DNA of 32,000 nucleotides from Acidothermus cellulolyticus 11B (GCF_000015025.1 NC_008578.1:1200001-1232000), one strand, 5' to 3'; counted from the first letter of the stretch, positions 5,826 through 24,624 are shown. Translations and numbers: made by a program. Notes: generated from the letters alone by a model not told the origin.

Positions 5826-6003
5826 GCGGTATCGCGTCGTCCGCGGTCGTGGTCCTGCCACCGGGCCGCGCGATGCTTGGGATCATGCTCTTCACTGGGG
5901 CTGCGGTGATCGCGGGATCGACATGGGCGGCGGTCCGGGCTGCCCGGCTCGAGCCCGCGCAGGCGCTCCGGGACGTCGTGTGAGCCGCCGCCCGTGGCCG
6001 TTG

Positions 6004-6032
6004 TTGACCACGATCGCGACGTCACGTATTGT
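6004..6032 (+). promoter_or_regulatory. Putative sigma-A type promoter for rpsA (TTGACC-17 nt-TATTGT)
   Basis: The -35 TTGACC is at 6004-6009 and the -10 TATTGT at 6027-6032, with an exact 17-nt spacer. This implies a leader of about 90-150 nt upstream of the rpsA start candidates. Confidence 0.4.
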
Positions 6033-6181
6033 GGCGTCTGCGTTCGGAGTGCGGTCTGCCCGTGCTCCGGCTGTGCTGATTACCTGTGCAGCCCCACCGT
6101 CCGCCATCGAACGCACCCACCCCTATGACCGAAGAAGGCATCACGAACACCAGACCAGATTCCCCGGAGACCAACGACCAC

Positions 6182-7729
6182 ATGACGACCGCTACTGATG
6201 TACGCCCCGAAACCCCCGAGCCGCCCGCGTCCTCACGCATCGCCGTCAACGATGTCGGCTCGACCGACGATTTCATCGCTGCGATCGACAAGACGATCAA
6301 ATACTTCAACGACGGGGACATCGTGGAGGGGACCGTCGTCAAGGTTGATCGCGACGAGGTCCTCCTCGACATCGGCTACAAGACCGAGGGCGTGATCCCG
6401 TCGCGCGAGCTCTCGATCAAACATGACGTCGATCCGCACGAGGTAGTCAAGGTCGGGGACCGGATCGAGGCCCTTGTCCTGCAGAAGGAGGACAAGGACG
6501 GCCGTTTGATCCTCTCGAAGAAGCGGGCGCAGTACGAGCGGGCCTGGGGGACCATCGAACAGATCAAGGAAGCGGACGGCGTCGTCACCGGCACGGTTAT
6601 CGAGGTCGTCAAGGGTGGGCTCATCCTCGACATCGGGCTGCGCGGGTTCCTGCCGGCGTCACTCGTCGAGATGCGGCGAGTTCGCGATCTCGCTCCGTAC
6701 GTGGGTCGGAAGCTAGAAGCGAAGATCATCGAGCTGGACAAGAACCGAAACAACGTCGTCCTGTCTCGGCGGGCTTACCTCGAGCAGACCCAGTCGGAGG
6801 TACGCCAGACCTTCCTCACCACGCTGAAGAAGGGGCAGATCCGCAACGGCGTGGTCAGTTCGATCGTGAATTTCGGTGCGTTCGTCGACTTGGGCGGGGT
6901 GGACGGGCTGGTCCACGTCTCCGAGCTCTCCTGGAAGCACATCGACCACCCCAGTGAGGTCGTCGAGGTCGGAATGCCGGTCACCGTTGAGGTCTTGGAC
7001 GTCGACCTCGACCGGGAACGGGTTTCGCTCTCCCTCAAGTCGACGCAGGAAGATCCGTGGCAGCTGTTCGCCCGCACCCACAGTCTCGGCCAGGTGGTTC
7101 CGGGGAAGGTGACCAAGCTGGTACCGTTCGGCGCCTTTGTTCGGGTGGAAGACGGCATCGAGGGATTGGTGCACATTTCCGAACTCTCCGACCGGCATGT
7201 CGAAATTCCCGAGCAGGTCGTCCAGGTCGGTGACGAGATCTTCGTAAAGATCATCGATATTGACCTTGAGCGCCGCCGGATCAGTCTGTCACTGAAGCAG
7301 GCGCTGGAAGGCGTGGAATCGACCAGCCCCGAGCAATTCGACCCCACCGTTTACGGCATGCCAGCCAGTTACGACGAGCACGGCAATTACATCTATCCAG
7401 AGGGCTTTGACCCGGAGACCAACCAATGGCTTCCCGGCCACGAGGCGCAGCAGGCCGAGTGGGAACGCCAGTACGCCGAGGCGCGCGCCCGGTTCGAGGC
7501 GCACCGCGCCCAGGTTGCCAAGATGCGCCAGGCGCAGGCACAGGCGGAGGCGGAGCAGGCGACGACATCGTCTGACGGAGGTGCGGCCGAGACGCCGGCT
7601 GAGCCGAGCGGCAGTCTCGCCGGTGACGAGCAGCTCGCCGAGCTGCGACGCAAGCTTGCCGAGGATGCGGTCGAGCAGCCCGCCGCCGCGGATGCGAACC
7701 CGGACGAAGAGTCGAAGGATCCCGCCTGA
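6182..7729 (+). CDS. rpsA: 30S ribosomal protein S1
   Basis: The sequence is near-collinear with mycobacterial RpsA as I recall it (AVNDVGSTDDFIAAIDKTIKYFNDGDIVEGTVVKVDRDEVLLDIGYKTEG..., four S1 domains and an acidic/Ala-rich tail). I preferred the ATG at 6182 because of the GGAGA at 6166-6170. The ATG at 6125 is an alternative, and the ORF-track start at 6086 is unlikely. Confidence 0.93.
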   Translation: MTTATDVRPETPEPPASSRIAVNDVGSTDDFIAAIDKTIKYFNDGDIVEGTVVKVDRDEVLLDIGYKTEGVIPSRELSIKHDVDPHEVVKVGDRIEALVLQKEDKDGRLILSKKRAQYERAWGTIEQIKEADGVVTGTVIEVVKGGLILDIGLRGFLPASLVEMRRVRDLAPYVGRKLEAKIIELDKNRNNVVLSRRAYLEQTQSEVRQTFLTTLKKGQIRNGVVSSIVNFGAFVDLGGVDGLVHVSELSWKHIDHPSEVVEVGMPVTVEVLDVDLDRERVSLSLKSTQEDPWQLFARTHSLGQVVPGKVTKLVPFGAFVRVEDGIEGLVHISELSDRHVEIPEQVVQVGDEIFVKIIDIDLERRRISLSLKQALEGVESTSPEQFDPTVYGMPASYDEHGNYIYPEGFDPETNQWLPGHEAQQAEWERQYAEARARFEAHRAQVAKMRQAQAQAEAEQATTSSDGGAAETPAEPSGSLAGDEQLAELRRKLAEDAVEQPAAADANPDEESKDPA

Positions 7730-8442: not shown

Positions 8443-9084
8443 ATGGTCGAGGGCCGGCCGCTGCTCGTCGGCCTGACCGGCGGCATCGGCGCCGGCAAGA
8501 GCGCGGCGCTCGCGATGTTCGCCGAACTTGGCGCTGTCACGATTGACTCCGATGAGGTCGCACGACAGGTGACGGCGCGCGGTACGGCGGGATTCGCTGC
8601 TGTGCTAAAGGAATTTGGGCCGGAGTACCTCGACCCGACCGGAGAGATTGATCGACGCCGATTGGCTGGGCTCGTCTTCTCCGACCCAGCGGCGCGTCGC
8701 CGGCTGGAAGCCATCGTGCACCCGCTGGTCCGTGCCGACATTCGCCGGCAGATAGCGGCCCTGCCGCCTTCGGCAATTGTCGTCAATGCCGTGCCGCTCC
8801 TCGTTGAGGCAGGCCTGGTCCATGACTATGACCGGATCGTCGTCGTCGAGAGCCCACCGCACCTTCGGCTGCAGCGTCTGGAAGCGCGCGGGCTCAGCCG
8901 GGCCGAGGCCCTCGCCCGGATGGCCGCGCAGGCTGACGACGCGGCCCGCCGGGCAGTCGCCTGGCGGGTCGTCGTCAACGACGGATCGCTGGATACACTG
9001 CGGCAACGGGTTCGCAGCGTCTGGCTCGAATTGCGCAATCAGGCTCAAGGCGGCGGTGCTGAGACACCGGATTTCTCGGCATAG
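8443..9084 (+). CDS. coaE: Dephospho-CoA kinase (single-domain form)
   Basis: An internal ATG at 8443 gives MVEGRPLLVGLTGGIGAGKS (P-loop), the typical CoaE N-terminus. The position after rpsA matches other actinobacteria. Confidence 0.88.
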   Translation: MVEGRPLLVGLTGGIGAGKSAALAMFAELGAVTIDSDEVARQVTARGTAGFAAVLKEFGPEYLDPTGEIDRRRLAGLVFSDPAARRRLEAIVHPLVRADIRRQIAALPPSAIVVNAVPLLVEAGLVHDYDRIVVVESPPHLRLQRLEARGLSRAEALARMAAQADDAARRAVAWRVVVNDGSLDTLRQRVRSVWLELRNQAQGGGAETPDFSA

Positions 9085-9168
9085 CCGGGTGGATTGTGCC
9101 GGGTGCGACGCGCGCGTACGGCACCTGTGAACGTCGGCCGTGTGCCGTGCTGATGGCGCGCGGGCTCA

Positions 9169-9211
9169 TTGACAAGCTCCAGACGCCTTCGTATCGTTCG
9201 TATACAAACGA
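9169..9211 (+). promoter_or_regulatory. Putative promoter (TTGACA-17-TATCGT) with overlapping operator-like palindrome S1 (TCGTTCGTATACAAACGA, 9194-9211)
   Basis: The -35 TTGACA is at 9169-9174 and the -10 TATCGT at 9192-9197, with a 17-nt spacer. The 18-nt palindrome (8 of 9 arm positions pair) starts inside the -10. It lies 21 nt upstream of the aldehyde dehydrogenase GTG at 9232 and is related to sites at 15514 and 17801. Confidence 0.55.
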
Positions 9212-9231
9212 CATTGAGGGAGGACCCGCGC

Positions 9232-10671
9232 GTGCGTCTGGAATTCCGCAACTTCATTGATGGCCGCGTCGTCGATCCCTCGGGGGATGAGGCTCTGCCC
9301 ATCACGGATCCGCACTCCGGTGAAATCATTGGATATTCCGCCCGCTCGAATGCGGAAGACATCGATCGAGCGTGTAGGGCCGCGGCGGAGGCCTACACCA
9401 CGTGGCGGGATACCACCCCCGCGGAACGATCTCGGGTCTTGCTGCGGATCGCTGATGACATCGAAGAGCGTGTCGAGGAGCTGGCCCGCTTGGAGAGCCG
9501 GAACACTGGTAAGCCGCTTCAGGTGCTTCGCAGCGTCGAGATACCCGCGATGGTCAACCAGATTCGGTTTGTCGCAGGAGCCGTACGAGCGCTCGTCGGA
9601 CCGACGGCCGGGGAGTATCGTCGTGGGTCGACCTCGTATCTGCGCCGTGAGCCGGTCGGTGTCGTGGCACAGATCACCCCGTGGAATTACCCCCTCATCA
9701 TGGCCGCGTGGAAGTTCGCACCCGCGATCGCGGCCGGAAATACCGTCGTGTTGAAGCCGTCCGAAACGACGCCGGTCACGACTCTGGCACTTGCCGAGCT
9801 TGCCTCGGCTCACTTGCCTCCCGGTGTCTTCAACGTCGTCTGCGGTGACGCCGCTACCGGCGCCGCACTCGCGGCACATCCCCTCCCACAGCTTGTTGCC
9901 ATCACCGGTTCCGTGGCCGCAGGCGTGGCCGTCGCCGAAACGGCGAGCCGGGATGTGAAGCGGCTGCACCTCGAACTTGGCGGCAAGGCCCCCGTCCTAG
10001 TGTTCGACGATGTCGACATTCCCAAGGCGGCGGCGGCGATCGCCGAGGCGGGGTTTTTCAACGCGGGTCAGGATTGCACCGCGGCGACGAGGGTTCTGGC
10101 CGCTCGCGACATTGCTGACGACCTGACTGCGGCATTGGCCAAAGAAGCGGCGGACATTCCGACGACCTTTGCGTACGGTGTCGAACATCCGCGCGCCTTG
10201 GTGCCCGCCCTCAACAACGTCCGGCAGTTGGAACGCGTAGCCCGGCATATCGAGACTCTGCCGCCGCATGCAGTCGTGGTTGCAGGCGGCCGCCGACAGG
10301 GCGAACGCGGTTTTCATTTCGCACCCACGGTTGTTGCACACCTTCACGAACATGACGACATCACCTGTACGGAGGTCTTCGGTCCGGTCATCACCGTCGA
10401 GACCTTCGCAACCGAAGAGGAAGCGGTCCGTCGTGCGAATGACGTGCCATACGGACTCGCATCAAGCGTGTGGACGACAGACCTGGCGCGGGCGATGAGA
10501 ATCGCGCGGAGGCTCGATTTCGGTTGCGTCTGGATCAACGAACACGGCTCACTTGTTGCCGAGATGCCTCACGGAGGCTTCAAACACTCCGGTTACGGTA
10601 AAGATCTCTCGATTTACTCGGTCGAGGAGTACACCAGGGTCAAACACATCATGGCTCGATTCGACGAATGA
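9232..10671 (+). CDS. NAD(P)-dependent aldehyde dehydrogenase, gamma-aminobutyraldehyde dehydrogenase (PatD/YdcW)-like
   Basis: The GTG at 9232 follows GAGGGAGGA (9216-9224). Motifs are ELGGKAP, FFNAGQDCTAATR (catalytic Cys), EVFGPV and a C-terminal MPHGGFKHSGYGKDLSIYSVEEYTRVKHIM. The last closely resembles E. coli PatD as I recall it. Confidence 0.85.
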   Translation: MRLEFRNFIDGRVVDPSGDEALPITDPHSGEIIGYSARSNAEDIDRACRAAAEAYTTWRDTTPAERSRVLLRIADDIEERVEELARLESRNTGKPLQVLRSVEIPAMVNQIRFVAGAVRALVGPTAGEYRRGSTSYLRREPVGVVAQITPWNYPLIMAAWKFAPAIAAGNTVVLKPSETTPVTTLALAELASAHLPPGVFNVVCGDAATGAALAAHPLPQLVAITGSVAAGVAVAETASRDVKRLHLELGGKAPVLVFDDVDIPKAAAAIAEAGFFNAGQDCTAATRVLAARDIADDLTAALAKEAADIPTTFAYGVEHPRALVPALNNVRQLERVARHIETLPPHAVVVAGGRRQGERGFHFAPTVVAHLHEHDDITCTEVFGPVITVETFATEEEAVRRANDVPYGLASSVWTTDLARAMRIARRLDFGCVWINEHGSLVAEMPHGGFKHSGYGKDLSIYSVEEYTRVKHIMARFDE

Positions 10672-12008
10672 CGGGAGATACGGTGACGTCTGACCAGACC
10701 ACGGAGTCGGCCGTTCCAGGGCCGCGCAGTGCCGAGCTGCATCGCCGGCGGGAGGCTGCGGTCGCCCGGGGCGTGAGTTCCGTTGCACCCTTCTATGTCG
10801 CCGGCGCACGCGACAGCCGGCTCGTCGATGTGGACGGGAGATCGTATATTGACCTCACGTCCGGGATTGCGGTCGCCAATGTCGGCCATGCGCCAAAGCA
10901 CGTTATCGAGGCGATTCACGCTCAGGCTGAGAGTTTTCTGCACACCTGTTTCATGGTCGCGCCATACGAGCAGTATGTGGCGGTGTGCGAACGACTGAAT
11001 GCCCTAACGCCCGGTGCATTTGCGAAGAAAAGTCTCCTGGTCAATTCAGGGGCTGAAGCGGTGGAGAACGCTGTCAAGATTGCCCGCTATGCCACAAATC
11101 GGCCGGCCGTCGTTGTCTTTGAGAATGCCTATCACGGGCGCACCAACTTGACGATGGCGATGACCGCGAAAGCGCATCCGTACAAAGACGGATTCGGCCC
11201 CTTCGCGGGTGAAATCTATCGAGCGCCGATGTCGTATCCTTTTCGCGATCCGGCAGCCATGACCGGCGAGGAGGCCGCTGCGCGCGCCATCGACGTTATC
11301 GAGCGCTACGTCGGAGCGGCACGTGTTGCATGCGTCGTCATAGAACCGATCCAGGGTGAAGGAGGATTTGTCGTTCCCGCACCCGGATTCCTACCCACAT
11401 TGCGGCAGTGGTGCAGTGAAAACGATGTCCTCTTCGTCGCTGACGAGATTCAAACCGGGTTCGGACGGACCGGGCACATGTTCGCGTGCGAGCACGAGTC
11501 CGTCGTCCCCGACATTATGATTCTCGGTAAGGCTCTGGCGGGAGGTCTGCCGCTTGCCGCGGTGACTGGCCGCGCGGATCTCGTTGATCGGGTGCATCCG
11601 GGCGGGTTGGGCGGTACGTACGGTGGAAATCCGGTCGCGTGTGCGGCGGCGCTCGCCACCCTGCACCTTCTCGAGGCAATGAATGCGCCCGCCCGCGCCC
11701 GCGGAATTGAGAAGATCATGCGGCCGCGGCTGGATGCTCTCGCAGCTCGCTATCCGTTCATTGGCGACGTTCGCGGTCGGGGTGCCATGCTTGCCCTCGA
11801 GGTGGTGCGGCCGGGCACAAAGGATCCCGATGCGGCGCGGACAGCCGATATCGTGCGTTCATCGTATGACGAAGGTCTCGCAGTCCTAAGCTGCGGTATG
11901 TACAGCAATGTACTGCGGTTTCTGCCGCCGCTGAGTATCGACGACGCGCTGCTCGTGGAAGCGATGAACCGGCTCGACCACGTCTTCGAGCGGGTAGCCG
12001 CCGCTTGA
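10668..12008 (+). CDS. Class-III PLP aminotransferase, 4-aminobutyrate aminotransferase (GabT/PuuE)-like
   Basis: The ATG overlaps the upstream stop (ATGA at 10668-10671). Motifs are SGAEAVENAVKIAR, DEIQTGFGRTG and ILGKALAGGLP (PLP lysine). Confidence 0.85.
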   Translation: MTGDTVTSDQTTESAVPGPRSAELHRRREAAVARGVSSVAPFYVAGARDSRLVDVDGRSYIDLTSGIAVANVGHAPKHVIEAIHAQAESFLHTCFMVAPYEQYVAVCERLNALTPGAFAKKSLLVNSGAEAVENAVKIARYATNRPAVVVFENAYHGRTNLTMAMTAKAHPYKDGFGPFAGEIYRAPMSYPFRDPAAMTGEEAAARAIDVIERYVGAARVACVVIEPIQGEGGFVVPAPGFLPTLRQWCSENDVLFVADEIQTGFGRTGHMFACEHESVVPDIMILGKALAGGLPLAAVTGRADLVDRVHPGGLGGTYGGNPVACAAALATLHLLEAMNAPARARGIEKIMRPRLDALAARYPFIGDVRGRGAMLALEVVRPGTKDPDAARTADIVRSSYDEGLAVLSCGMYSNVLRFLPPLSIDDALLVEAMNRLDHVFERVAAA

Positions 12009-12021
12009 GTATCGTGGTGGC

Positions 12022-12738
12022 ATGCCGACGGTCCTCTTCATCGAGCACGATCACGTTTCTCCGCCAGGCCTCCTGGGTGACGCGTTCGAGAAATGCGGCT
12101 GGGACGTCGCAGAGTTTCTCGTCGTACCGCCTGAATCATTTGACAGCCCGGCGATAGACGTCCGTTTACCGGATCCGCTGCACTATGACGCGGTCGTGCT
12201 GCTCGGTGCTCCCTGGTCGGTGTACGACGAAGCGCTGCAGGAACGGTGGGTCGGGGAGGAAATCGCGTTGGCCCGACAAGCCGACGCCGAGGGCATGCCC
12301 GTCATCGGTGTCTGTTTTGGTGGTCAGCTTCTCGCCGCCACCCATGGTGGACGGGTCGAACGCGCGGCATGCGCTGAAGTCGGCTGGACGAGGATCCATT
12401 CCCGCGTCCCGGAGTTCATTCCGGAGGGTCCGTGGCTGCAATGGCATCAGGACCGATGGCACACACCAGCGGGTGCGGCGGAGCTCGCCCATAGCCTTGT
12501 TGCGCCGCAGGCCTTCATGCTTCGGGCGAACCTCGCTGTTCAATTTCATCCCGAAGCGGATGAAACCGAGGTGGCTCTCTGGCTGGAGGCCGGAGGCGCC
12601 GATTACGTGCGCCAGCACAACCTCGACCCCGACGAACTTCTTCGGATCACTCGTCGTGAGCAGGCGCGCGCCGCTCAGTGCACCGAGAAATTGCTCAAAG
12701 GGTACTTGGAGCGTGTTCACGACCTGAACCGCCGGTGA
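12022..12738 (+). CDS. Stand-alone class-I glutamine amidotransferase-like protein (candidate gamma-glutamyl-amide hydrolase)
   Basis: The nucleophile elbow is GVCFGGQLL and the His/Glu region is AVQFHPEAD. It lies 13 nt after the aminotransferase on the same strand. Confidence 0.75.
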   Translation: MPTVLFIEHDHVSPPGLLGDAFEKCGWDVAEFLVVPPESFDSPAIDVRLPDPLHYDAVVLLGAPWSVYDEALQERWVGEEIALARQADAEGMPVIGVCFGGQLLAATHGGRVERAACAEVGWTRIHSRVPEFIPEGPWLQWHQDRWHTPAGAAELAHSLVAPQAFMLRANLAVQFHPEADETEVALWLEAGGADYVRQHNLDPDELLRITRREQARAAQCTEKLLKGYLERVHDLNRR

Positions 12739-12864
12739 ACAACGAACCGTCTGTGCACGACGGGATGACCGCGAGCCGGCTCAGGCTGGAGATAGCCCGG
12801 GACGCGACGGCAACCGGTGAGAGGAGGTGCGTGCCGTCGGCCCCGGGTTGCCTCCGGCCTTCTG

Positions 12865-14109
12865 TCACGCGAGGGTGACCCGCACCGGCATCTTCTTCAC
12901 GCCGTGGATGAAGTTGGAACGGACGTACGAGACATCACCGGCCAACTCCATGCGCTTGATTCTGGGCAGGAGCGTCTCGAACATGATCCGGATCTCCATA
13001 CGGGCAAGCTTGTTGCCGAGGCAGAAGTGTGGGCTGCCCTTCCCGAACGTCACGTGATCATTAGGATGGCGCGTCACGTCAAACCGATACGGATCCGTGA
13101 AGACCTCCTCGTCGCGGTTGCCGGACGCGAACCACATCACGACCTTATCGCCGGCGCGAATGTGCTTTCCGTGCAGCTCGACGTCACGGGTGGCGGTACG
13201 GCGGAAGTGGTACACCGGTGACGCCCAGCGAAGGAATTCCTCCACCGCTTGTGGAATGAGCTCCGGCCTGTCTTGGAGCAGGCGCATCTGGTCGGGGTTG
13301 TTGATCAGGGCGAGCATCGAGTGGCTGATCGCGTGTCGAGTCGTCTCATTGCCGGCGATGACCAAGAGTAGGAAGTAGTTGTCGAAATCACGCTGGGAAA
13401 GCGGCACGCCATCCTCGGGCATCTGGTTGACGAGCTTGCTCACCAGATCCTGTCCGCTGCGGCCGCGTCGCTGCCGGGCAAGCTCACGACCGTATTCGAA
13501 CACCTCGAGCGCCGCGGGGGAGCGGAATGGAAGATGGCGATACTTGTTGCTCTCCGGACTGTCCAGAAGAACATCCGCATAGTCCGGATCGGTGTTCCCA
13601 ATCATGCGATTGCCCCACGCGATCAGCCTTCCGGTGTGGTGTTCCGGAACATCGAGCATGCGGGCGAGAACCTGAATGGGAAAGTCCGCGCTCACCTCGG
13701 AGACGAAATCGAATTCCTTATGCCGCAGAGCCGCCTCCACGGTCGCTCTCGTCAACCCTCGAAGAAAGGACTCGTAGCCCTTGAGGGTGGTTGTTCCGAA
13801 ATCCCTGACGAGCAGACGCCGCAGTGCATGATGACGCGGTCCGTCGGTCTCGAGCATGGAGCGGCGTATCTCCATCGTCTCCTCGTCGAGTTCCTCAAGG
13901 TTGACGAACTTCTCCGAGGTGAAGGTTTCCGGGTCCCGGTCCACCGCGACGATGTCGGCGTGCCGGGTGACCGCCCAGAAGCCCTTGTTGGGCGGCGGCT
14001 CAGGATTCCAGTACACCGGTTCTTCGCGGCGGAGATAATCAAACGCAGGCCATGCGCGGTCCTGCTCGAACATGTCGAGATCGGTGAGATCGACGGTTGT
14101 TTGCTGCAC
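12865..14109 (-). CDS. Cytochrome P450 monooxygenase (resembles the actinobacterial CYP124/125/142-type group)
   Basis: The heme-thiolate loop is FGKGSPHFCLGNKLAR, the I-helix is AGNETT, and ExxR is EEFLRW. The GTG start at 14109 has GGAGGA just upstream. It lies 44 nt downstream of the GS-like gene on the same strand. Confidence 0.9.
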   Translation of the reverse strand: MQQTTVDLTDLDMFEQDRAWPAFDYLRREEPVYWNPEPPPNKGFWAVTRHADIVAVDRDPETFTSEKFVNLEELDEETMEIRRSMLETDGPRHHALRRLLVRDFGTTTLKGYESFLRGLTRATVEAALRHKEFDFVSEVSADFPIQVLARMLDVPEHHTGRLIAWGNRMIGNTDPDYADVLLDSPESNKYRHLPFRSPAALEVFEYGRELARQRRGRSGQDLVSKLVNQMPEDGVPLSQRDFDNYFLLLVIAGNETTRHAISHSMLALINNPDQMRLLQDRPELIPQAVEEFLRWASPVYHFRRTATRDVELHGKHIRAGDKVVMWFASGNRDEEVFTDPYRFDVTRHPNDHVTFGKGSPHFCLGNKLARMEIRIMFETLLPRIKRMELAGDVSYVRSNFIHGVKKMPVRVTLA

Positions 14110-14153
14110 GGGTCCTCCGGAAGTTGTGCGGTCAACGTAGGGGCAATGAGCGA

Positions 14154-15503
14154 TTAGAGGTGGTAGAGATATTCACCGACTTCCCAGTCGGTCACGTAAT
14201 GTGCGAAGCGTTCCAGTTCGTTCCGCTTATAGGTCACGAACGCCGAGATCAGGGGCTTCCCTAGGATCTCCGTGAGCTCGGTGTCCGCCTCCAGGGCGTC
14301 AAGGGCGGCTTCGAGATTCCGGGGCAGAAGTCGGGAGCGGGACGCATCGTAACCGTATCCCTCGGTCGGCGGCGGCGGCGTGAGTTTCTCTTCGATGCCG
14401 AGGTACGCGCCGGCCACGACACTTGCGATGGCGAGATAGGGGTTGGCCGTCGCGTCTCCGAGACGGACTTCGATGCGTGTGGCGTCTCCGCGTTCGGGGG
14501 GAATCCGTACCATCGTGCTCCGATTGTCCAGCCCCCAGTCAATCAACCAGGATGCGAGCGTGTCGGGACCGAACCGTTTGTAGGAATTGATCGTGGGGTT
14601 ATTGAACGCGGCGAGAGCCGGCGCATGCGCGAGGATGCCTGCAACGGCGTGTTCCGCCAGCGACGACAGGCCGGTGGGAGCCGCCTCATCAGCAAACAGT
14701 GACCGATCGCTCGGATCCACGATGGAGAAGTGGAGGTGGAATCCCGAGCCGCCCTCCTCGTTGAACGGCTTCGCCATGAAGGTGGCGTGTTTGCCGGCGC
14801 GGCGGGCTAACTCCTTGACGGCCGTGCGGAAGCGGAAAGCGCGGTCCGCGGCGTCCAATGCGTGCGAGTGGCCAATATTGATCTCAAATTGCCCGCTGAA
14901 GAACTCGTGATTGCCCGCGGTGGCGCGAATACCGTAGCGGGCGAGCTGCCTGAGAAATTCGAGGAGCAGGTTTTCTGGGTCGCCCTTGCGCCCGGCCACG
15001 TAGACGTTGCCCGGTGCCTCGCCGTACCGCCGCCAACCGGACGACGACGAGCCCTCCAGGAGGTAGAACTCCATTTCCGGACCGACGACCGGAACGAGAT
15101 TCTCGGCTTCGCATCGACCCACCACAGAGCGCAGCACTGAGCGCGGGCTCTCCGCGCATGGGCGGCCGTCGGGCTCGACGATGTCAGCCAGGACGTGGGC
15201 GACGCCGTCCTCCCAGGGAATCTTGCGAACCGTCGACAGATCCGGCTTGGCAAGGACGTCAGGCAATCCGGCGTCGAGACCGCCGGCGACCGGTACGACG
15301 TCCCCCCTCGGGCTGGTGTGGAAGACCCCGCGGCAGAACGCAATGCCGCCTTCACCCAGGTGGTGCGCAAGCGTTTCGACGACAAGATCCCGGCCGCGTT
15401 CCGTTCCGATGAGGTCCGCGTATCCGATCCGCAGAACGTCGATTCCCTCGCTGCGCAGCTGCTCCGTCAGGCGCTCGACGTTACGTTGATCGTCGGACTG
15501 CAT
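14154..15503 (-). CDS. Glutamine synthetase-like gamma-glutamyl-amine ligase (GlnA3/PuuA/IpuC/TdnQ-type family)
   Basis: The protein is 449 aa. The GS catalytic-domain signatures are KPFNEEGGSGFHLHFS, NSYKRF and RIEVRLGDATANPYLA. The ATG at 15503 has AGGAGG 6 nt upstream. The context is accessory, not the housekeeping glnA locus. Confidence 0.85.
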   Translation of the reverse strand: MQSDDQRNVERLTEQLRSEGIDVLRIGYADLIGTERGRDLVVETLAHHLGEGGIAFCRGVFHTSPRGDVVPVAGGLDAGLPDVLAKPDLSTVRKIPWEDGVAHVLADIVEPDGRPCAESPRSVLRSVVGRCEAENLVPVVGPEMEFYLLEGSSSSGWRRYGEAPGNVYVAGRKGDPENLLLEFLRQLARYGIRATAGNHEFFSGQFEINIGHSHALDAADRAFRFRTAVKELARRAGKHATFMAKPFNEEGGSGFHLHFSIVDPSDRSLFADEAAPTGLSSLAEHAVAGILAHAPALAAFNNPTINSYKRFGPDTLASWLIDWGLDNRSTMVRIPPERGDATRIEVRLGDATANPYLAIASVVAGAYLGIEEKLTPPPPTEGYGYDASRSRLLPRNLEAALDALEADTELTEILGKPLISAFVTYKRNELERFAHYVTDWEVGEYLYHL

Positions 15504-15513
15504 TCATGACCTC

Positions 15514-15537
15514 CTATCGTTTGGTACCAAACGATAG
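15514..15537. promoter_or_regulatory. Perfect 24-bp palindrome S2 (CTATCGTTTGGTACCAAACGATAG), operator-like, in the divergent GS-like / ADC-MarR intergenic region
   Basis: CTATCGTTTGGT and ACCAAACGATAG are exact reverse complements. The palindrome abuts the RBS of the GS-like gene. On the minus strand its TATCGT can serve as a -10 with TTGCTC 17 nt upstream. It shares the core GTTTGG-NN-CCAAAC with the site at 17808-17821. Confidence 0.65.
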
Positions 15538-15675
15538 AACAGACGCGGGCGGTGAGCAATAGACTGGGCGGGTCCGACACGCGGGGGAGGGCGACGGTCT
15601 CGTAACCAGATTCCGAATCGCCGTCGTACTCTTTCCGCTCGGATGACCGCTGACGACCATAGGGTAGGTGATGCG

Positions 15676-16503
15676 ATGCGGGGATTCTTTTACCCACGGA
15701 CGCCGACCGGGCAGGCGTCGATTATTCCTGCGCCGCCTTGGTATTACTCCGGGGACATGTTGACCGTTGAGTACCGGACCGATCCCGCTTTGGTGGCGGC
15801 CCTGCTGCCGCCTCCGCTGGAACCCGCTCCGGAGGATCCGGGCGCGGTCGCGATTATCTGGGCTGACTGGCAATCGTGCTCCGAAGGCGGCGCTGAGCTG
15901 CTTGATCCGGTCCGGGCACAGTACAAGGAAACGCTCGTCGTCGTCCGCTGCACGTATCGCGGTGAGATCTTTTCCCGCTGCGTCTTTATCTGGGTCGACA
16001 AGGACTTTGCCCTCGTCCGGGGGCTGCATCAGGGCTATCCGAAGAAGCTGGGCTCGATCTGGATGACACGGCCCCATCCCTACGGACGGGCCGCCCCCCG
16101 ACTCGAAGCGGGTGCCACGATAGCGGCCACGCTCGCTGCGGCGGACCGTCGGCTGGCACAAGCAGTCGTGACATTGCGCGATGTTGTCGAGGCACCCGGC
16201 TTCGTGAACAGCCATCCGATGGCACACCACCGCGTTGTCCCCGGGATAGCCAAAGGCGCGCCGGACGCCCTGAACGAGCTCATCCGATCCGCTGCCGCCG
16301 CGGTCACGGGCGGGCCCGTCTGGCGAGGTGACGCGTCCTTGGAGCTCTTTGAGTCGCCGACGGAGGAGCTTGCCGCACTCCGTGTCGATGAGATCATAGG
16401 TGGCTACTATCGGCAGGTGGGAGTCGTATGGGACGGCGGTGAGGTCCTCGCGCCGCACGGTTCGGGTGGCGGTGTACAGCCTCCCGAGGCGCGCGAATCA
16501 TAG
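15676..16503 (+). CDS. Acetoacetate decarboxylase (ADC)-family protein
   Basis: MRGFFYPRTPTG...YRTDPALVAALLPPPLEP aligns with the N-terminus of clostridial Adc as I recall it. The Schiff-base lysine context YPKKLG is conserved (HQGYPKKLGS). I preferred the ATG at 15676 (AGGGTAGG 7 nt upstream); the ATG at 15643 is an alternative. Confidence 0.8.
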   Translation: MRGFFYPRTPTGQASIIPAPPWYYSGDMLTVEYRTDPALVAALLPPPLEPAPEDPGAVAIIWADWQSCSEGGAELLDPVRAQYKETLVVVRCTYRGEIFSRCVFIWVDKDFALVRGLHQGYPKKLGSIWMTRPHPYGRAAPRLEAGATIAATLAAADRRLAQAVVTLRDVVEAPGFVNSHPMAHHRVVPGIAKGAPDALNELIRSAAAAVTGGPVWRGDASLELFESPTEELAALRVDEIIGGYYRQVGVVWDGGEVLAPHGSGGGVQPPEARES

Positions 16504-16551
16504 TCATTTCACCTCGGACCTGGTCGGCGACGGACAAGGAGGATGCGGCGC

Positions 16552-17067
16552 ATGACGGGTTATCACACCTTGGCGGAAACCGAGAAGGCCATGGCCACTC
16601 ACCTCAAAGGATTGCCGATCGACATGGCCGCCGCTGAAGCCGTCTCAAACCTTTACCGGGCGGCTAATATCGCCCGCAACCATCTCACGCAGACGGTCCT
16701 GAAAGATGTCGATCTCACCTGGACCGCATTTGTCGTCCTCTGGGTGACCTGGATGTGGGACGGCATTGAGAGCCGGCACGCTGCGGAGGAAGCCGCCATC
16801 TCCAAGGCGACCTTGACCGGCGTGGTCCAGACGTTGGAGCGTCGGGGTCTCCTTGCTCGATTCGGCGATTCCGATGATCGACGTCTGGTGCGTCTCCGGC
16901 TTACCAACGAAGGCCGGAGCCTGATGCAGAAGCTCTATCCGGTTTTCAACGCGGAGGAACAATTCATCGTATCGACATTGAGTCCGCGCGTGCGCTCCAC
17001 CATGACCCGAGGGCTGCGTGCTATCGTCGCCCATCTTGAGTCGCAAAGCGACACGCGGCGTCCATAA
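16552..17067 (+). CDS. MarR-family transcriptional regulator
   Basis: The winged-HTH region is AAEEAAISKATLTGVVQTLERRGLLARFGDSDDRRLVRLRLTNEG. The ATG at 16552 sits 9 nt after AAGGAGG (16536-16542); the ORF-track ATG at 16543 abuts the RBS. It lies 48 nt downstream of the ADC-family gene. Confidence 0.85.
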   Translation: MTGYHTLAETEKAMATHLKGLPIDMAAAEAVSNLYRAANIARNHLTQTVLKDVDLTWTAFVVLWVTWMWDGIESRHAAEEAAISKATLTGVVQTLERRGLLARFGDSDDRRLVRLRLTNEGRSLMQKLYPVFNAEEQFIVSTLSPRVRSTMTRGLRAIVAHLESQSDTRRP

Positions 17068-17752
17068 ACGCTTTGAAAATTGCCATCTGTGCTTGATCGC
17101 TCGGCGTCCCGTCTTCCGGATGCCATTGGATGCCGAGGCACCAACCCGCTTCACCGGACAGTTCGAACGCTTCCGGCGTGCCGTCCACGGCCCAGGCCAC
17201 TGGGCGAAGTCCGCGGCCCGGTCGAGCGACACACTGGTGATGAAAGCAGGACACCCACATGCTCGGCCGAGTGACGATCTGACCAAGGCGGCTGGCCGGC
17301 TCGACCGTCACGTCATGTTTACGATGACGGTGCGCCTCTTCCGCCATATCAACGACAAGGGAGCCTCCTAGGGCGACGGTCAAAACGTGAAGGCCGCGGC
17401 AGATTCCCAAGAGTGGAACCCCTCGGGCGACGCAGTGGCGTGCGCAGGCGAGATCCACCGCGTCTTGTTCGACGTCGACGTCGTACAGCGTCGGATGCTC
17501 CGCCTCGCCGTACCACTGGGGGTGCAGATCGCCGCCGCCGGGGAGCAGGACGGCGTCCGCCTCCCGGAGCCGATCCGCCAGCTCCGTTTCATCGATCGTG
17601 CCGTTGGGAGCCCAGGGCAAGAAGGACAACGGCTCGCCACCCGCCAGGTAGACGGCTTCGGCAAGGGCGCGCGCGGTGGCCAGTGCGGCAAAGCGAAGCG
17701 CAGAGGCGCGCGCCGAGAAGCGGGCCGGTATGAAGACCCGTGGACGTTGCAT
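17021..17752 (-). CDS. Gamma-glutamyl-gamma-aminobutyrate hydrolase (PuuD)-like peptidase C26 / class-I amidotransferase
   Basis: The nucleophile is GICRGLH, with CFHHQ and GIQWHPE. The C-terminal AIFKAFMDAAC resembles the E. coli PuuD tail. The 3' end overlaps the MarR 3' end by 47 nt. Confidence 0.85.
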   Translation of the reverse strand: MQRPRVFIPARFSARASALRFAALATARALAEAVYLAGGEPLSFLPWAPNGTIDETELADRLREADAVLLPGGGDLHPQWYGEAEHPTLYDVDVEQDAVDLACARHCVARGVPLLGICRGLHVLTVALGGSLVVDMAEEAHRHRKHDVTVEPASRLGQIVTRPSMWVSCFHHQCVARPGRGLRPVAWAVDGTPEAFELSGEAGWCLGIQWHPEDGTPSDQAQMAIFKAFMDAACRFATQDGRR

Positions 17753-17781
17753 GACAACGCTCCAATGCGTCTGTGCAGTTC

Positions 17782-17827
17782 TTGACCCGTCGACGACAGC
17801 CTATTATGTTTGGACCCAAACGAATAG
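17782..17827 (+). promoter_or_regulatory. Putative promoter (TTGACC-17-TATGTT) with overlapping operator-like quasi-palindrome S3 (CTATTATGTTTGGACCCAAACGAATAG, 17801-17827)
   Basis: The -35 is at 17782-17787 and the -10 at 17805-17810, with a 17-nt spacer. The core GTTTGG-AC-CCAAAC (17808-17821) matches S2 in 14 of 18 positions over 17806-17823. It sits between the divergent PuuD-like (start 17752) and HpaE-like (start 17860) genes. Confidence 0.55.
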
Positions 17828-17859
17828 ACGCACGAGTAGACGACGGCGGGAGGGTGCGG

Positions 17860-19341
17860 ATGCCGCGTACGACGTCCGTCAGCGGAATTGAGGTTTCCGT
17901 TGACCACTGGGTGGGCGGCGAACGCCTCGCGTCGGATGCGACGTTCCCTGACATTTCACCGCTTGATCAGCAGGTTCTCGCCAATGTCGCCCGCGGCGGA
18001 CCGCGGGAAGTGAGCGCCGCGGTCGACGCCGCTTCGGCGGCGTTTCCGCAATGGGCGGCGACACCGCGCACCGAGCGGGCCGCCCTCCTGCACGCCGTAG
18101 CGGAAGGCATCGAGAAGCGTGTCGACGATCTCGCACTCGTCGAAACGTTGGACAACGGGGGGTTGCTCCGGTCCCATCGTCGGAGTGTGATTCCCCGCGC
18201 CGCGTATAACTTTCATTTCTTTGCGGATTTTCTCTTGCAGCTCGGTCATGAGGATTTCGAGACACGAGGACATAGAAACCACATTTCGTGGCAACCGGCA
18301 GGAGTCACGGCGGTCATCACGCCGTGGAATGCACCGTTGATGCTCGCCACCTGGCGGGTCGCACCCGCCCTAGCCGCCGGCAATACCGTCGTGCTCAAGC
18401 CCCCGGAGTGGGCGCCGTTGACGGCATCACTCCTCGCCGACATTACCGCTGAAGCCGGGCTGCCGCCAGGCGTCTTTAACGTCGTGCAGGGTATTGGGGA
18501 GGAGGCCGGTGCCGCACTGGTGCGCGATCCCCGGGTACGCCGTATCGCCTTCACCGGCTCGGTTGCGACCGCGCGCGCCATCGGTCACGCGGCAGCGGAG
18601 AACGTCATCCCCGTCTCCTTCGAGCTGGGAGGCAAGAATCCGTTCATTGTCTTTCCCGACGCCGACCTGGACCTCGCTGTACGACACGCGGTGGATCAGT
18701 ACGACAACGCCGGCCAGGTCTGTCTCGCCGGCACGCGATTGTACGTCGCCGACGCCGTCTACGACGAATTCCTTGAGCGGTTTCTCCAGGCGGCTGCGGC
18801 GTGGCGGGTAGGGGACCCGCGCAGCGAAGACGTCGACATGGGCCCGCAGATTCATCCCGACCATCTTGCGCGCATTGACGGATACGTCCGCCGCGCGAAA
18901 GCCGCCGGGGCGACGGTCCTACTCGGCGGCGGCCCGCATCCGGAGCTGGGCGGTCTGTACTACCAACCCACCTTATTGACGAATGTTGCCGATGACAGTG
19001 AGATCAACCGCGAAGAAGTCTTCGGTCCTGTCATTGTCCTGCATCGATTTACGGACGAAGACGAAGTCATCCGGCGTGCGAACGACAATATCTATGGGCT
19101 CGCGGCGATGGTCTTTACCGGCGACCGGTCACGGGCGGAGCGCGTCGCGGACCGGCTGGTCGCCGGCACCGTCTGGGTGAACTGCTTCTACGTCCGCGAC
19201 TTGCGGGCGCCGTTCGGCGGCGCGCGGTTGTCCGGTATCGGCCGGGAAGGCGGCACCTGGTCGTTCGACTTCTACGCGGAGGTCAAGAACACGGTGACCG
19301 CCCCGAGCGGCTGGTTGATAAAGGAGGCGAATGGTGGGTGA
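17860..19341 (+). CDS. Ring-fission semialdehyde dehydrogenase (5-carboxymethyl-2-hydroxymuconate / 2-hydroxy- or 2-aminomuconate semialdehyde dehydrogenase, HpaE-like)
   Basis: The ATG at 17860 follows GGGAGGG. The sequence is collinear with E. coli HpaE as I recall it: HWVGGE, IPRAAYNFHFFADF, FELGGKNP, NAGQVCLAGTR and VRDLRAPFGGARLSGIGREGG. Confidence 0.85.
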   Translation: MPRTTSVSGIEVSVDHWVGGERLASDATFPDISPLDQQVLANVARGGPREVSAAVDAASAAFPQWAATPRTERAALLHAVAEGIEKRVDDLALVETLDNGGLLRSHRRSVIPRAAYNFHFFADFLLQLGHEDFETRGHRNHISWQPAGVTAVITPWNAPLMLATWRVAPALAAGNTVVLKPPEWAPLTASLLADITAEAGLPPGVFNVVQGIGEEAGAALVRDPRVRRIAFTGSVATARAIGHAAAENVIPVSFELGGKNPFIVFPDADLDLAVRHAVDQYDNAGQVCLAGTRLYVADAVYDEFLERFLQAAAAWRVGDPRSEDVDMGPQIHPDHLARIDGYVRRAKAAGATVLLGGGPHPELGGLYYQPTLLTNVADDSEINREEVFGPVIVLHRFTDEDEVIRRANDNIYGLAAMVFTGDRSRAERVADRLVAGTVWVNCFYVRDLRAPFGGARLSGIGREGGTWSFDFYAEVKNTVTAPSGWLIKEANGG

Positions 19342-20245
19342 AGTCGTCGGTGCGGGACTGCTGTCCCATGTGCCAACGATCATGTTGCCGGAGTCCACGC
19401 GGCGTGAGTTGTACGAAGGCAAAGACACCACGCTCGTCGACGGACTGCGTCGGCTTCGTACTGAAGTCTTTGAAACGCTCGACTATGACACGGTCGTCGT
19501 CCTTGACTCGCACTGGGCGACCACCGTCGAGTTCGTTGTGACGGCACACCCGCTCCGGGCCGGCCTCTTTACCTCAGAAGAGCTGCCGCGCGGCATGCGT
19601 CGCATCCCTTACGACTTCATGGGCGATCCTGATCTCGCACATGCCATCGCCGCAGCCGCGGAGAGACACGGCACCTGGATCACGGCAATCGACGATCCAT
19701 ATTTGCCAATCTTTTACGCCACGGTCAATCTCTGGAAGTATCTGGGGGAGGGACTCGATCGGAGGTGGATCTCCCTCAGTGTCTGCCAAACCGCAGATAT
19801 GGAAGACTTTCTGCGCGCCGGTCGAGCCCTTGGCGAGGCAATCATCAACTCTGATCGCCGTGTCATACTCATCGCATCCGGCGCGCTGAGCCATACCTTC
19901 TGGCCGCTCCGCGAATTGCGGAAGCATGAAGCCGCGGGTGTTGAACACATCTTCAGCAGGGAAGCCGCCGATGCCGACAACGAGCGGCTTGCCTGGTTCC
20001 AGAAGGGTGATCACGCTCAGGTGCTCCGGACGATGGGGGAGTTCTACCGTTTCAAGCCGGAGGCGAAATTTGGTCACTACCTTCTGATGATGGGCGCACT
20101 CGGCGAGGAGGCCTGCACGGCACCCGGGCGGTTATTCAGTGCATATGAAAATTCGATCGGCACGGGACAAGTCCACGTGTGGTTCGATCGTCCAGAAGGA
20201 GGCTTTCCCGCTCCGCGCGCGACAGACACTCGTGGCGATGACTGA
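19331..20245 (+). CDS. Class III (LigB-type) extradiol ring-cleavage dioxygenase, HpaD/HpcB-like
   Basis: Motifs are LSHVPTIM, VVLDSHW, IASGALSHTFW and IGTGQVHVWF, as in homoprotocatechuate 2,3-dioxygenase (HpcB) and the related AmnB/LigB enzymes. The start (ATG 19331 or GTG 19334) overlaps the upstream stop, and AAGGAGG is at 19321-19327. Confidence 0.85.
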   Translation: MVGEVVGAGLLSHVPTIMLPESTRRELYEGKDTTLVDGLRRLRTEVFETLDYDTVVVLDSHWATTVEFVVTAHPLRAGLFTSEELPRGMRRIPYDFMGDPDLAHAIAAAAERHGTWITAIDDPYLPIFYATVNLWKYLGEGLDRRWISLSVCQTADMEDFLRAGRALGEAIINSDRRVILIASGALSHTFWPLRELRKHEAAGVEHIFSREAADADNERLAWFQKGDHAQVLRTMGEFYRFKPEAKFGHYLLMMGALGEEACTAPGRLFSAYENSIGTGQVHVWFDRPEGGFPAPRATDTRGDD

Positions 20246-21110
20246 GGTCGAGCGCGTTACCGAGTACCGCCGGATACTCCTCGACGGCGCGGAAACCCGC
20301 GTCGAGCGGCACGGTGACCTATTGATCGCACCAGACGGCCGACGTGTTCCGGTCGAGAAAGCGGTTCATCTCCCTCCCGTTCAGCCAACAAAGATTATCG
20401 CGGTACACCTCAATTACCGCAGCCGCGTCGAGGAGTTTCACGCGCGGCTTCCGCCGGCTCCCACCTACTTTCACAAGCCGACGACGGCGCTCAACGCTCA
20501 CGGAGGCGCCGTCGTGCGGCCGCAACGATGCCGTTGGCTCAACTTCGAAGGTGAATTCGCTGTGGTGATCGGTAGGCCATGCCGCAACATCCGGCCGGAT
20601 GACGCGATGGACTACGTCGCCGGATTCACCATAGCGAACGATTTCGGGCTGCACGACTTCCGGGACACGGATGCAGGGTCCATGCTTCGCGTCAAGGGCT
20701 CCGATACGCTCTGCCCTCTGGGCCCGGGACTCGTCGTCGGCTGGCAACCGCAGGGCAAGCGCCTGCGTACCTATGTCAACGATCGCGTCGCTCAGGATGC
20801 GTCAACAGACGAGATGGAGTGGAGCCCCGCGTATCTCATCGCCGACATCGCCCGCACCATCACCCTGCTGCCCGGTGACGTGATTCTCACCGGTACACCC
20901 GCGGGCTCGCGTCCGGTCGAACCAGGTGACGTTGTCACGGTGGAGGTCGAAGGCCTCGGCCGCCTGGTCAACTACGTTGTCGAAGGACCAATACCGGTGC
21001 GTGATGACGTCGGCGCGCAGCCGTCGTCATCAGAAGAAGTGGTCTCCACCGCCCTCGGCGGCGATTGGGAGTTCCGAGGCATTCGGCCTCCCCGCCGTGC
21101 GGTGGAGTGA
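20238..21110 (+). CDS. Fumarylacetoacetate hydrolase (FAH)-family enzyme (HpaG/HpcE-type decarboxylase/isomerase or hydratase, single domain)
   Basis: The ATG at 20238 (or GTG at 20232) overlaps the dioxygenase stop (ATGACTGA). FAH-fold motifs are KIIAVHLNYRSR, NFEGEFAVVIG and GDVILTGTPAG. Confidence 0.8.
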   Translation: MTEVERVTEYRRILLDGAETRVERHGDLLIAPDGRRVPVEKAVHLPPVQPTKIIAVHLNYRSRVEEFHARLPPAPTYFHKPTTALNAHGGAVVRPQRCRWLNFEGEFAVVIGRPCRNIRPDDAMDYVAGFTIANDFGLHDFRDTDAGSMLRVKGSDTLCPLGPGLVVGWQPQGKRLRTYVNDRVAQDASTDEMEWSPAYLIADIARTITLLPGDVILTGTPAGSRPVEPGDVVTVEVEGLGRLVNYVVEGPIPVRDDVGAQPSSSEEVVSTALGGDWEFRGIRPPRRAVE

Positions 21111-21149
21111 CCCGGTGTATCAACCACTGCCACAGGAAAACGGGAGTCA

Positions 21150-21371
21150 ATGATCATGCGGATTGTCGTTGATCTGACGAAATGCCAGGATCACGGACAG
21201 TGTGTCTTCTCATGCCCGGAAGTGTTCTCGCTGGACGAGAACGGGAAGCTGTCTTTTCGAAAGTACGCGCAAGAGCTCTACCGATCGGAGCTCATTTCAG
21301 AGGAGCTGCGCGACAAGGTCGAAGAGGCGGCCGACGTCTGCCCCACCCAGGCAATTCTTATTGAGGAGTAA
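21150..21371 (+). CDS. Small ferredoxin, [3Fe-4S]-type P450 redox partner
   Basis: The protein is 73 aa. The cluster motif is C-QDH-GQ-C ... C-P (CxxHxxC...CP), as in actinobacterial P450-associated ferredoxins. The start is ATG 21150 or 21156. Confidence 0.85.
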   Translation: MIMRIVVDLTKCQDHGQCVFSCPEVFSLDENGKLSFRKYAQELYRSELISEELRDKVEEAADVCPTQAILIEE

Positions 21372-21374
21372 AAG

Positions 21375-22619: not shown

Positions 22620-22829
22620 GCCGGCGGCCTTCGCGCGGTGTGTTTCTGTTGGTCAACAACAATGTGACGATCTGTTCAGGGGTCTTGTCAGAAGATAGTT
22701 CGGGCCCTAATATCTCACCAGACGCGTGGCTCATCATTACGAGACCGAGTAGTTGACGGTGCCCGTCGGTACCGCCGCGGCTGCCGTCGTTCGAACGCGT
22801 CTTCCTATCGTGTCGATCGAGGAGGCCCT

Positions 22830-24380: not shown

Positions 24381-24431
24381 CGGTACGCGTGGTGCGCGCA
24401 GGTTAGCCTCGCGCTGTCCGAGTACTGACCG

Positions 24432-24487
24432 GGGACGTTCGCGCGTTTCCCCGGACCGGAGTCCTCCCCGAACCGCGCGAACGTCCC
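24432..24487 (+). terminator. GC-rich hairpin (14-bp perfect stem, 28-nt structured loop) downstream of the permease; possible factor-independent terminator without a U-tract
   Basis: GGGACGTTCGCGCG (24432-24445) pairs exactly with CGCGCGAACGTCCC (24474-24487). It begins about 50 nt after the permease stop. No T-run follows, so the assignment is tentative. Confidence 0.35.
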
Positions 24488-24624
24488 GGGTTCTCGCCTG
24501 CGCCGGACGCCGGCCCGACAGAGCGCCTGCGGTCCGTAGGCGGCTCAAGACACGGGGCGATCCTGATCCGCGGCGCACCCCAGTCATCCCCAGGAGTGCG
24601 CCGCGGCGTGCGTACGGTGGAACC

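Follow-up and report, generated by a model that had tools for sequence, protein, structure and literature searches.

A shared palindromic motif at the promoters of a catabolic island in Acidothermus cellulolyticus 11B and its candidate MarR-family repressor

We examined a stretch of 32,000 nucleotides from Acidothermus cellulolyticus 11B (NC_008578.1:1200001-1232000), referred to here as the window, for palindromic sites that might join the genes of a catabolic island into one regulon. The original prediction for this DNA held that three related palindromes, S1 to S3, overlap promoter elements and are bound by a MarR-family protein encoded in the island. We find four such sites, S1 to S4 (Table 1), which share one motif, overlap promoter sequences, and accompany the same set of genes in over 80 genomes of actinobacteria. 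To judge from the DNA and protein sequences, they are probably the operators of a local regulon that the island's own MarR would hold repressed until a metabolite of the pathway releases it. The MarR of the window is 100% identical to the MarR of A. cellulolyticus 11B.

Palindromic sites and promoters in the window

S1, S2 and S3 were recovered with exactly the sequences and coordinates first given for them, including the perfect 24-nt palindrome of S2, which is the longest 100%-complementary palindrome of the whole window. In a common register S1 reads TAT-CGTTCGT-AT-ACAAACG-ACA, S2 reads TAT-CGTTTGG-TA-CCAAACG-ATA, and S3 reads TTA-TGTTTGG-AC-CCAAACG-AAT. Common to the three is a 16-nt core, CGTTyGG-NN-CCrAACG, flanked by TA-T and A-TA, and direct comparison over an 18-nt core reproduces the reported identities of S2 to S3 (14/18) and to S1 (13/18). 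The further claim that the window contains no other copy of the motif proved wrong, as it overlooked S4, a degenerate site in the spacer between the ferredoxin reductase (FdR) and permease genes. S4 is kept in L202, a related locus whose MarR is 75% identical; because L202 has GTCGTTTGGGCCCTAATATC at the same place in the FdR-permease spacer, the unusual right half of S4, CCTAATAT, which doubles as a -10 element, is conserved.

The center of S1 lies 30 nt upstream of the GTG start codon (9232) of the first aldehyde dehydrogenase (ALDH) gene, and that of S3 lies 62 nt upstream of the ATG of the PuuD-like gene. S2 adjoins the Shine-Dalgarno sequence (15510-15515) of the glutamine-synthetase-like (GS-like) gene, and its position beside CCTCC and the GS-like ribosome-binding site is kept in the relatives L204 and L202. 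L204, with a MarR 87% identical, also has a near-identical counterpart of S3 at the same promoter.

Statistics on a pattern taken from the window are too weak to be useful, the degenerate pattern giving 7 window matches at no more than two mismatches against 2.66 expected, and so we scored the window out of sample. For this we used a 26-nt position weight matrix (PWM) built from 121 unique sites in orthologous loci of other genomes, with the window excluded. Its consensus is a-T-A-T-CGTTyGG-rY-CCrAACG-A-T-A-t, in which the half-site positions are 83-100% conserved and the 2-nt center is free; the flank positions, which were not in the search pattern, are nonetheless conserved and identical to those of S2. 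The four sites score 15.0 or more (Table 1); after them the best score anywhere in the window is 5.8, and outside the island no site reaches 6. When the window was simulated 2000 times with a first-order Markov model, the highest score was 22.4 and 0 of the 2000 simulations reached 25; a score of at least 15 is expected 0.046 times per window. One sequence upstream of a GNAT gene, GGTTTGTCGACGAACG at 2087-2102, has a single mismatch to the loose pattern and was set aside as a chance match (PWM score 0.2).

A neutral sigma-70 scan of positions 9000-24700 returned just three promoter-like matches (9169-9197, 17782-17810 and 22685-22713), each of which overlaps a motif site. The first two are the TTGACA/TATCGT and TTGACC/TATGTT pairs already proposed at S1 and S3, where the -10 elements of the ALDH-operon and HpaE promoters overlap the left half of the respective site. 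The third belongs to the permease gene, and its -10 element, TAATAT, sits in the right half of S4. The minus-strand promoter proposed at S2, TTGCTC-17-TATCGT, is present on direct reading, with its -10 element inside the right half of S2; at 8/12 matches it falls under the threshold of the scan.

Conservation of the sites in other actinobacteria

For comparison we used 80 loci from species-representative genomes, retrieved by alignment of MarR homologs (MarR 57-69% identity) and belonging to Nocardioides, Propionibacteriaceae, Mycobacterium and Mycolicibacterium, Microlunatus, Nakamurella, Pseudonocardia, Actinospica and others. One gene set is common to nearly all of them, in several orders, and the motif is found in almost all. 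The 1.25 Mb of sequence contains 181 matches with no more than two mismatches to CGTTTGGNNCCAAACG. The reversed pattern matches 5 times, and 30 palindromes made from shuffled half-sites match 4.6 times on average (maximum 26); the enrichment over controls in these loci is about 35-fold or more. At a PWM score of at least 12 there are 350 sites, versus 1 in the reversed sequence. None of the 350 lies inside a mapped coding sequence, and 322 fall within the span of the cluster; of the 28 outside this span, most are no more than about 2 kb from the last mapped gene. In other genomes the number of sites in one cluster reaches about 7.

The sites stand in front of particular genes. Counting gene copies with a site no more than 350 nt upstream, we found one at 66 of 69 ADC genes, 54 of 72 GS-like genes, 23 of 31 second ALDH genes, 21 of 30 genes for the glutamine amidotransferase (GATase), 31 of 49 permease genes, 30 of 54 HpaE genes and 26 of 71 cytochrome P450 genes, as well as in the region upstream of MarR itself in 37 of 81. 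Genes that come first in their operons carry sites upstream, and the internal genes LigB (0/54) and FAH (0/42) never do. Where gene order has been rearranged, as it has many times, the sites stay with the promoters, which bears out the earlier view that the modules of the island act as one system. To the units first assigned a fifth must be added, the permease gene behind S4, which had been missed.

Promoter geometry is conserved as well. With the orthologous promoters anchored on the site and oriented towards the gene, the conserved elements are a TTGAC-type -35 box and, 17-19 nt downstream of this, a TAnnnT hexamer that is formed by the operator flank together with the half-site. Sites near HpaE have GGG.TTGACCAA, a 17-nt spacer and then TA-CGTT (flank and half-site), with the -35 box in 31 of 31; those near the GS-like gene have TTGnCA-17-TAT-tGT in 38 of 55, and those near ADC, P450 and the second ALDH have analogous boxes. 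The GATase genes show another arrangement, in which the operator lies within the spacer and is followed by TAGACT; its median distance from the start codon, 23.5 nt, suggests that the GATase mRNAs are leaderless or very short-leadered. L204 and L202 keep the -35, the -10 and the operator, and their spacer sequence has diverged.

The arrangement in L202 differs from that in Acidothermus at the first unit. In L202 (634-5619) the aminotransferase belongs to a DAO / 151-aa / aminotransferase operon, which is divergent from a gene for a PucR-type (HTH_30) regulator, and the MarR-type site precedes the GATase gene only. In Acidothermus, ALDH and the aminotransferase share S1 with GATase. This difference looks like a rewiring of the regulon.

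The candidate regulator and competing explanations

MarR is the only regulator encoded among the 14 genes of the island. It is a single-domain protein with a winged helix-turn-helix (HTH), its PF01047 match covers residues 58-116 of 174, and 53 MarR-family PDB chains match it at E <= 1e-3. The sites likewise have the architecture of MarR-family operators, with a 16-nt palindromic core that overlaps the -10 element at S1 to S4. No other family of transcription factors is conserved in the 80 loci; LuxR-type regulators occur in 5 of them, and a flavin-reductase/FCD fusion without an HTH occurs in 13. In orthologs the motif lies upstream of MarR itself or of the ADC gene that precedes it. We therefore agree with the original prediction in regarding MarR as the candidate binder, this being the sole regulator of the island and the sole conserved regulator family, with the motif at its own unit in orthologs.

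A scan of metagenome contigs for ATCGTTYGGNNCCRAACGAT approaches the question independently of MarR; the counts given here are of the matches listed. At least 22 loci among these matches carry cluster genes by tblastn, and L189 is a 23rd with only the accessory VanA-like oxygenase and reductase, where a site lies upstream of the pair. Among the matches listed are 12 informative cluster-bearing contigs, 8 of which encode MarR. Distant MarR orthologs (33-41% identity; L083, L103, L132, L197), found through the DNA motif, lie between two sites. The recognition-helix motif GTLTG and the wing motif DRR are both retained in them, and their neighbors are LigB, HpaE, FAH and ADC genes. The scan supports the link to MarR without settling it.

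Several observations weigh against this assignment or reduce the force of the evidence for it. The presence of MarR in the 80 loci is circular, as the loci were retrieved with MarR. Four of the 12 cluster-bearing contigs (L089, L100, L120, L171) have no MarR within 8.7-12.7 kb, and in L089 a sigma-70-family (region 2) gene at 5935-6633 adjoins a strong site (5946, score 33), with no MarR there. About 67 of the 120 loci listed in the metagenome scan represent one unrelated repeated palindrome, a C/T variant of GATCGTTCGGATCCGAACGAT whose flanks are conserved; chance matches inside open reading frames of low-GC contigs account for several more. The start of the ADC-MarR unit has no nearby site in this genome, which makes autoregulation here uncertain. 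Finally, the conservation of the TA...T flanks could reflect the promoter instead of protein contacts.

Some of these points would also fit a regulon in which the sites are genuine operators bound by a different regulator, the island MarR controlling something else or only a part. Beyond the contigs that lack MarR and the retrieval of the 80 loci by MarR, such a reading can cite L202, where the PucR-type regulator adjoins the aminotransferase operon. We consider it unlikely: the PucR-type gene of L202 lacks a site in its own spacer, none of the other regulator families is conserved with the cluster, the great majority of the sites fall within the cluster span, and the MarR proteins at 33-41% identity were recovered by the motif alone, between sites, with their DNA-reading residues kept.

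Repression by MarR, the reading we prefer, would be steric, as proposed because of the geometry of promoter and operator and the established behavior of the MarR family. A MarR dimer would bind (T)ATCGTTyGG-NN-CCrAACGAT(A), each 7-8-nt half-site of this palindrome taking up one winged HTH, and the half-site centers being some 9-10 bp apart. Flank and half-site (TA-T-CGT) would themselves form the TAnnnT -10 element, 17-19 nt downstream of the TTGAC-type -35; at S4, and at the GATase promoters of other genomes, the operator would lie in the spacer, with its right half carrying the -10. Repressor bound there would cover the -10 and the start site and so keep RNA polymerase out. Expected to be switched off are ALDH-aminotransferase-GATase (S1), GS-like-P450 (S2), HpaE-LigB-FAH-ferredoxin-FdR (S3) and the permease (S4); with less certainty, ADC-MarR may be added for S2 and the PuuD-like gene for S3. 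Each half of the palindromic operator contains a -10-like hexamer, TATCGT, and a single dimer might, more speculatively, shut off a crossed pair of divergent promoters at the same time. A substrate or intermediate of the pathway may then bind MarR, causing its release and induction of the units.

The two less certain units are where one might suppose that MarR binds and acts as an activator, or in a dual manner, with the site farther upstream than any plausible -35 box. The ADC start is 150 nt downstream of the center of S2, we found no good plus-strand -35/-10 pair over S2 in the sequence, and the window has no ADC-proximal motif site (best PWM score -10.9). The earlier proposal that S2 probably controls ADC-MarR is uncertain for this genome: most orthologs have a separate ADC-proximal site, which is lacking here. 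S3 had likewise been assigned to both sides of a divergon; the overlap with the HpaE-side promoter holds, but on the PuuD side no convincing promoter overlapping S3 was found in the sequence. Activation seems improbable all the same, more so than a different binder, as the operator covers the -10 or start at S1, S2 (GS-like), S3 (HpaE), S4 and the orthologous promoters, a placement incompatible with activation.

It is very improbable that the palindromes are RNA or DNA hairpins (5' untranslated region structures, terminators or repeats like the repetitive extragenic palindromic, or REP, elements) or chance occurrences rather than protein operators, for although S2 is a perfect hairpin-forming palindrome and unrelated metagenome contigs contain a similar one, GATCGTTCGGATCCGAACGATC, that has the behavior of a dispersed repeat, it is the bases and not the pairing that are conserved (half-sites 83-100%, center free), the position of the site is fixed relative to the -35 boxes, Rfam gave no match in the window, no T-runs follow S1 to S3, and chance is excluded by the simulations.

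The dispersed palindrome GATCGTTCGGATCCGAACGATC, with flanks ...AAAAGCGACAGATCGTTCGG...CGTACGATTT, was seen in L085, L090-L094, L101, L114, L124, L136, L155, L165, L180 and others, often as two copies 85-86 nt apart, on high-GC contigs with CarD-like proteins, Ser/Thr kinases and extracytoplasmic function (ECF) sigma factors. In 6-7 contigs its neighbor belongs to a different MarR-like family. The palindrome may be REP-like or may mark another regulon. We rejected the idea that S1 to S3 are themselves such a dispersed element: they differ at 4-5 of 18 positions, have no common extended flanks, and occur only at promoters of the cluster.

Island genes, possible pathway and known systems

The window has the backbone order polA, rpsA, coaE, then the island, then uvrB, a GNAT gene and uvrA. 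The island lies between coaE and uvrB (window 9100-24600), the polA-rpsA-coaE-uvrB backbone being otherwise conserved, and in other genomes the cluster is found in other contexts. Its G+C content (about 9.1-24.4 kb) is 62.9%, against 66.8% and 65.4% in the flanks. The ADC/MppR-like and MarR genes, separated by 39 nt, are probably co-transcribed. The 3' ends of the convergent MarR and PuuD-like genes overlap by 47 nt here (17021-17067) and by 62 nt in L202 (10464-10525).

Table 1. Sites, predicted promoters and genes of the island (positions in the window; PWM, position weight matrix score; GABA-AT, gamma-aminobutyrate aminotransferase; Fdx, ferredoxin)
Feature	Position	Strand	Details
S1, putative operator	9192-9213		palindrome 9194-9211 TCGTTCGTATACAAACGA; core 9195-9210 CGTTCGTATACAAACG, flanks TAT / ACA; PWM 25.7
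S2, putative operator	15514-15537		perfect 24-nt palindrome CTATCGTTTGGTACCAAACGATAG; core 15518-15533; PWM 31.4
S3, putative operator	17801-17827		CTATTATGTTTGGACCCAAACGAATAG; core 17807-17822 TGTTTGGACCCAAACG; PWM 28.9
S4, putative operator, degenerate	22694-22715		core 22697-22712 AGTTCGGGCCCTAATA; PWM 15.0; FdR-permease spacer
Promoter, ALDH/aminotransferase/GATase operon	9169-9197	+	-35 TTGACA 9169-9174, 17 nt, -10 TATCGT 9192-9197; 10/12 matches
Promoter, GS-like/P450 operon	15531-15559	-	-35 TTGCTC 15559-15554, 17 nt, -10 TATCGT 15536-15531; read from the sequence, 8/12 matches
Promoter, HpaE operon	17782-17810	+	-35 TTGACC 17782-17787, 17 nt, -10 TATGTT 17805-17810; neutral scan
Promoter, permease gene	22685-22713	+	-35 TTGTCA, 17 nt, -10 TAATAT; neutral scan, 9/12 matches
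Unit 1: ALDH, aminotransferase, GATase-like	9232-12738	+	downstream of S1
ALDH, aminobutyraldehyde-DH subfamily	9232-10671	+	Pfam; NCBIfam PRK13473 649 bits vs 615 cut-off; start GTG at 9232
Class-III aminotransferase, GABA-AT subfamily	10668-12008	+	Pfam; NCBIfam PRK06058 678 vs 639 cut-off
Class-I GATase-like	12022-12738	+	Pfam; orthologs with own site in 21/30 genomes
Unit 2: GS-like ligase, P450	12865-15503	-	Pfam
Cytochrome P450	12865-14109	-	Pfam
GS-like ligase	14154-15503	-	Pfam; NCBIfam gamma-glutamylputrescine-synthetase model below cut-off
Unit 3: ADC/MppR-like, MarR	15676-17067	+	gap 39 nt
ADC/MppR-like protein	15676-16503	+	
MarR regulator, 174 aa	16543-17067	+	PF01047 38.6 bits vs 24.6 cut-off
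PuuD-like peptidase C26 (gamma-glutamyl amide hydrolase)	17021-17752	-	Pfam PF07722, 150.7 bits; divergent from HpaE
Unit 4: HpaE-LigB-FAH-Fdx-FdR	17860-22619	+	
HpaE-like ALDH	17860-19341	+	
LigB-type extradiol dioxygenase	19331-20245	+	
FAH-family protein	20238-21110	+	
Ferredoxin (Fdx)	21150-21371	+	
Ferredoxin reductase (FdR)	21375-22619	+	
Unit 5: amino-acid/amine permease	22830-24380	+	Pfam PF00324 / PF13520

Other versions of the cluster contain additional genes. About 45 loci (L006, L009, L012, L016, L045, L062 and others) have, between the P450 and GS-like genes, one gene for a VanA-like Rieske oxygenase and another for a phthalate-dioxygenase-reductase-like protein; the pair is conserved in the Nocardioides and Mycobacterium versions of the cluster and absent from Acidothermus. 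A pyridoxal-phosphate (PLP)-dependent decarboxylase is encoded in 10 loci, and some Nocardioides loci have an amidase.

We suggest only tentatively that the regulated genes fit one route, the meta-cleavage of a gamma-glutamyl-protected arylethylamine, which would be apparently undescribed and widespread in actinobacteria. An arylethylamine of the tyramine or dopamine type would be gamma-glutamylated by the GS-like ligase, its ring hydroxylated by the P450 (with Fdx and FdR) and cleaved by the LigB-type extradiol dioxygenase. Hpa-style processing by the HpaE, FAH and ADC-like proteins could then yield pyruvate and gamma-glutamyl-4-aminobutanal, with the MppR-like enzyme plausibly serving as hydratase-aldolase. 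Puu-like steps would follow, namely oxidation by ALDH, deglutamylation by the PuuD-like protein and the action of the gamma-aminobutyrate (GABA) aminotransferase. The homoprotocatechuate pathway ends in pyruvate and succinic semialdehyde; if the side chain -CH2-COOH is replaced by -CH2-CH2-NH-gamma-Glu, the carbon count gives pyruvate and gamma-glutamyl-4-aminobutanal, and the latter is a substrate of the ALDH of the Puu pathway. A single arylethylamine route would thus account for Puu-like and Hpa-like enzymes under one operator. The accessory genes of other loci, the PLP-dependent decarboxylase and the VanA-like O-demethylase with its reductase, fit an arylethylamine substrate.

One operator motif links GS-like, P450, PuuD-like, GATase-like, ALDH, LigB/HpaE/FAH, MppR-like and permease genes, and its range extends from Acidothermus to Nocardioides, Propionibacteriaceae, the Mycobacterium group, Microlunatus, Nakamurella, Pseudonocardia and Actinospica. 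The shared operator is regulatory evidence that the modules form a single pathway. The matrix can be used to annotate the regulon in genomes and metagenomes, and the regulon narrows the candidate inducers or substrates to tyramine, dopamine, the gamma-glutamyl amides of both, homoprotocatechuate and GABA. A full-text literature search on the cluster, its regulator, gamma-glutamyl aromatic amines with P450, MppR-like proteins in meta-cleavage and the Acidothermus MarR returned nothing relevant.

The kinship of this MarR to proteins of solved structure is at the level of the family, and the PDB search returned no close relative. The best match is OhrR (2pex, 43.7 bits, E = 2.6e-10), and an OhrR model is also its best match in NCBIfam. 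We nevertheless rejected the identification as OhrR: the model, NF052638, scores 47.2 bits against a cut-off of 200, the context is catabolic, and the 174 residues of the Acidothermus protein include zero cysteines, so that thiol-based peroxide sensing is impossible. One source (JGI) labels some homologs (P0027, P0060, P0064, P0066 and others) "organic hydroperoxide resistance regulator". Because the Acidothermus MarR is free of cysteine and its genomic context is catabolic, this label is probably wrong for the subfamily, and it can be corrected for the members that bear it.

MarR-family repressors such as PcaV of Streptomyces (PDB 4fht), CouR, and MarR at marO are dimeric winged-HTH proteins released by their ligands, and their operators are 16-20-bp palindromes or pseudopalindromes over the -35 and -10 of their own or a divergent promoter. 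The sites described here resemble these in having a 16-nt core with a 2-nt center, and they differ in that one motif stands at 4-5 promoters rather than at a single divergent one. Among individual regulators, the likeness is to HpaR of E. coli W/C, also a small MarR-family protein encoded in a catabolic cluster with an HpaE/extradiol operon (HpaD-type in the case of HpaR) and palindromic operators at the promoter; HpaR is released by aromatic compounds of its pathway. The island MarR is a remote relative of HpaR and not an equivalog (TIGR02337 41.6 bits vs 121.2 cut-off; PDB 7el2, E = 2.4e-6), and its regulon, unlike that of HpaR, adds GS-like, P450, PuuD-like, GATase, GABA-AT-like and permease genes. 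These additions recall the Puu pathway of E. coli, where one local repressor, PuuR, likewise controls a GS-like ligase, gamma-glutamyl-amine oxidation, an ALDH, the PuuD hydrolase and a GABA aminotransferase. PuuR, however, is an XRE-HTH/cupin protein and not a MarR, and the protected amine here apparently has an aromatic ring that would be hydroxylated and cleaved (P450, LigB, HpaE, FAH, ADC-like). The type of switch, a MarR repressor with palindromes over the -10, is an ordinary one, of which the island offers a new and well-supported case; the new content lies in the regulon and the probable pathway it serves.

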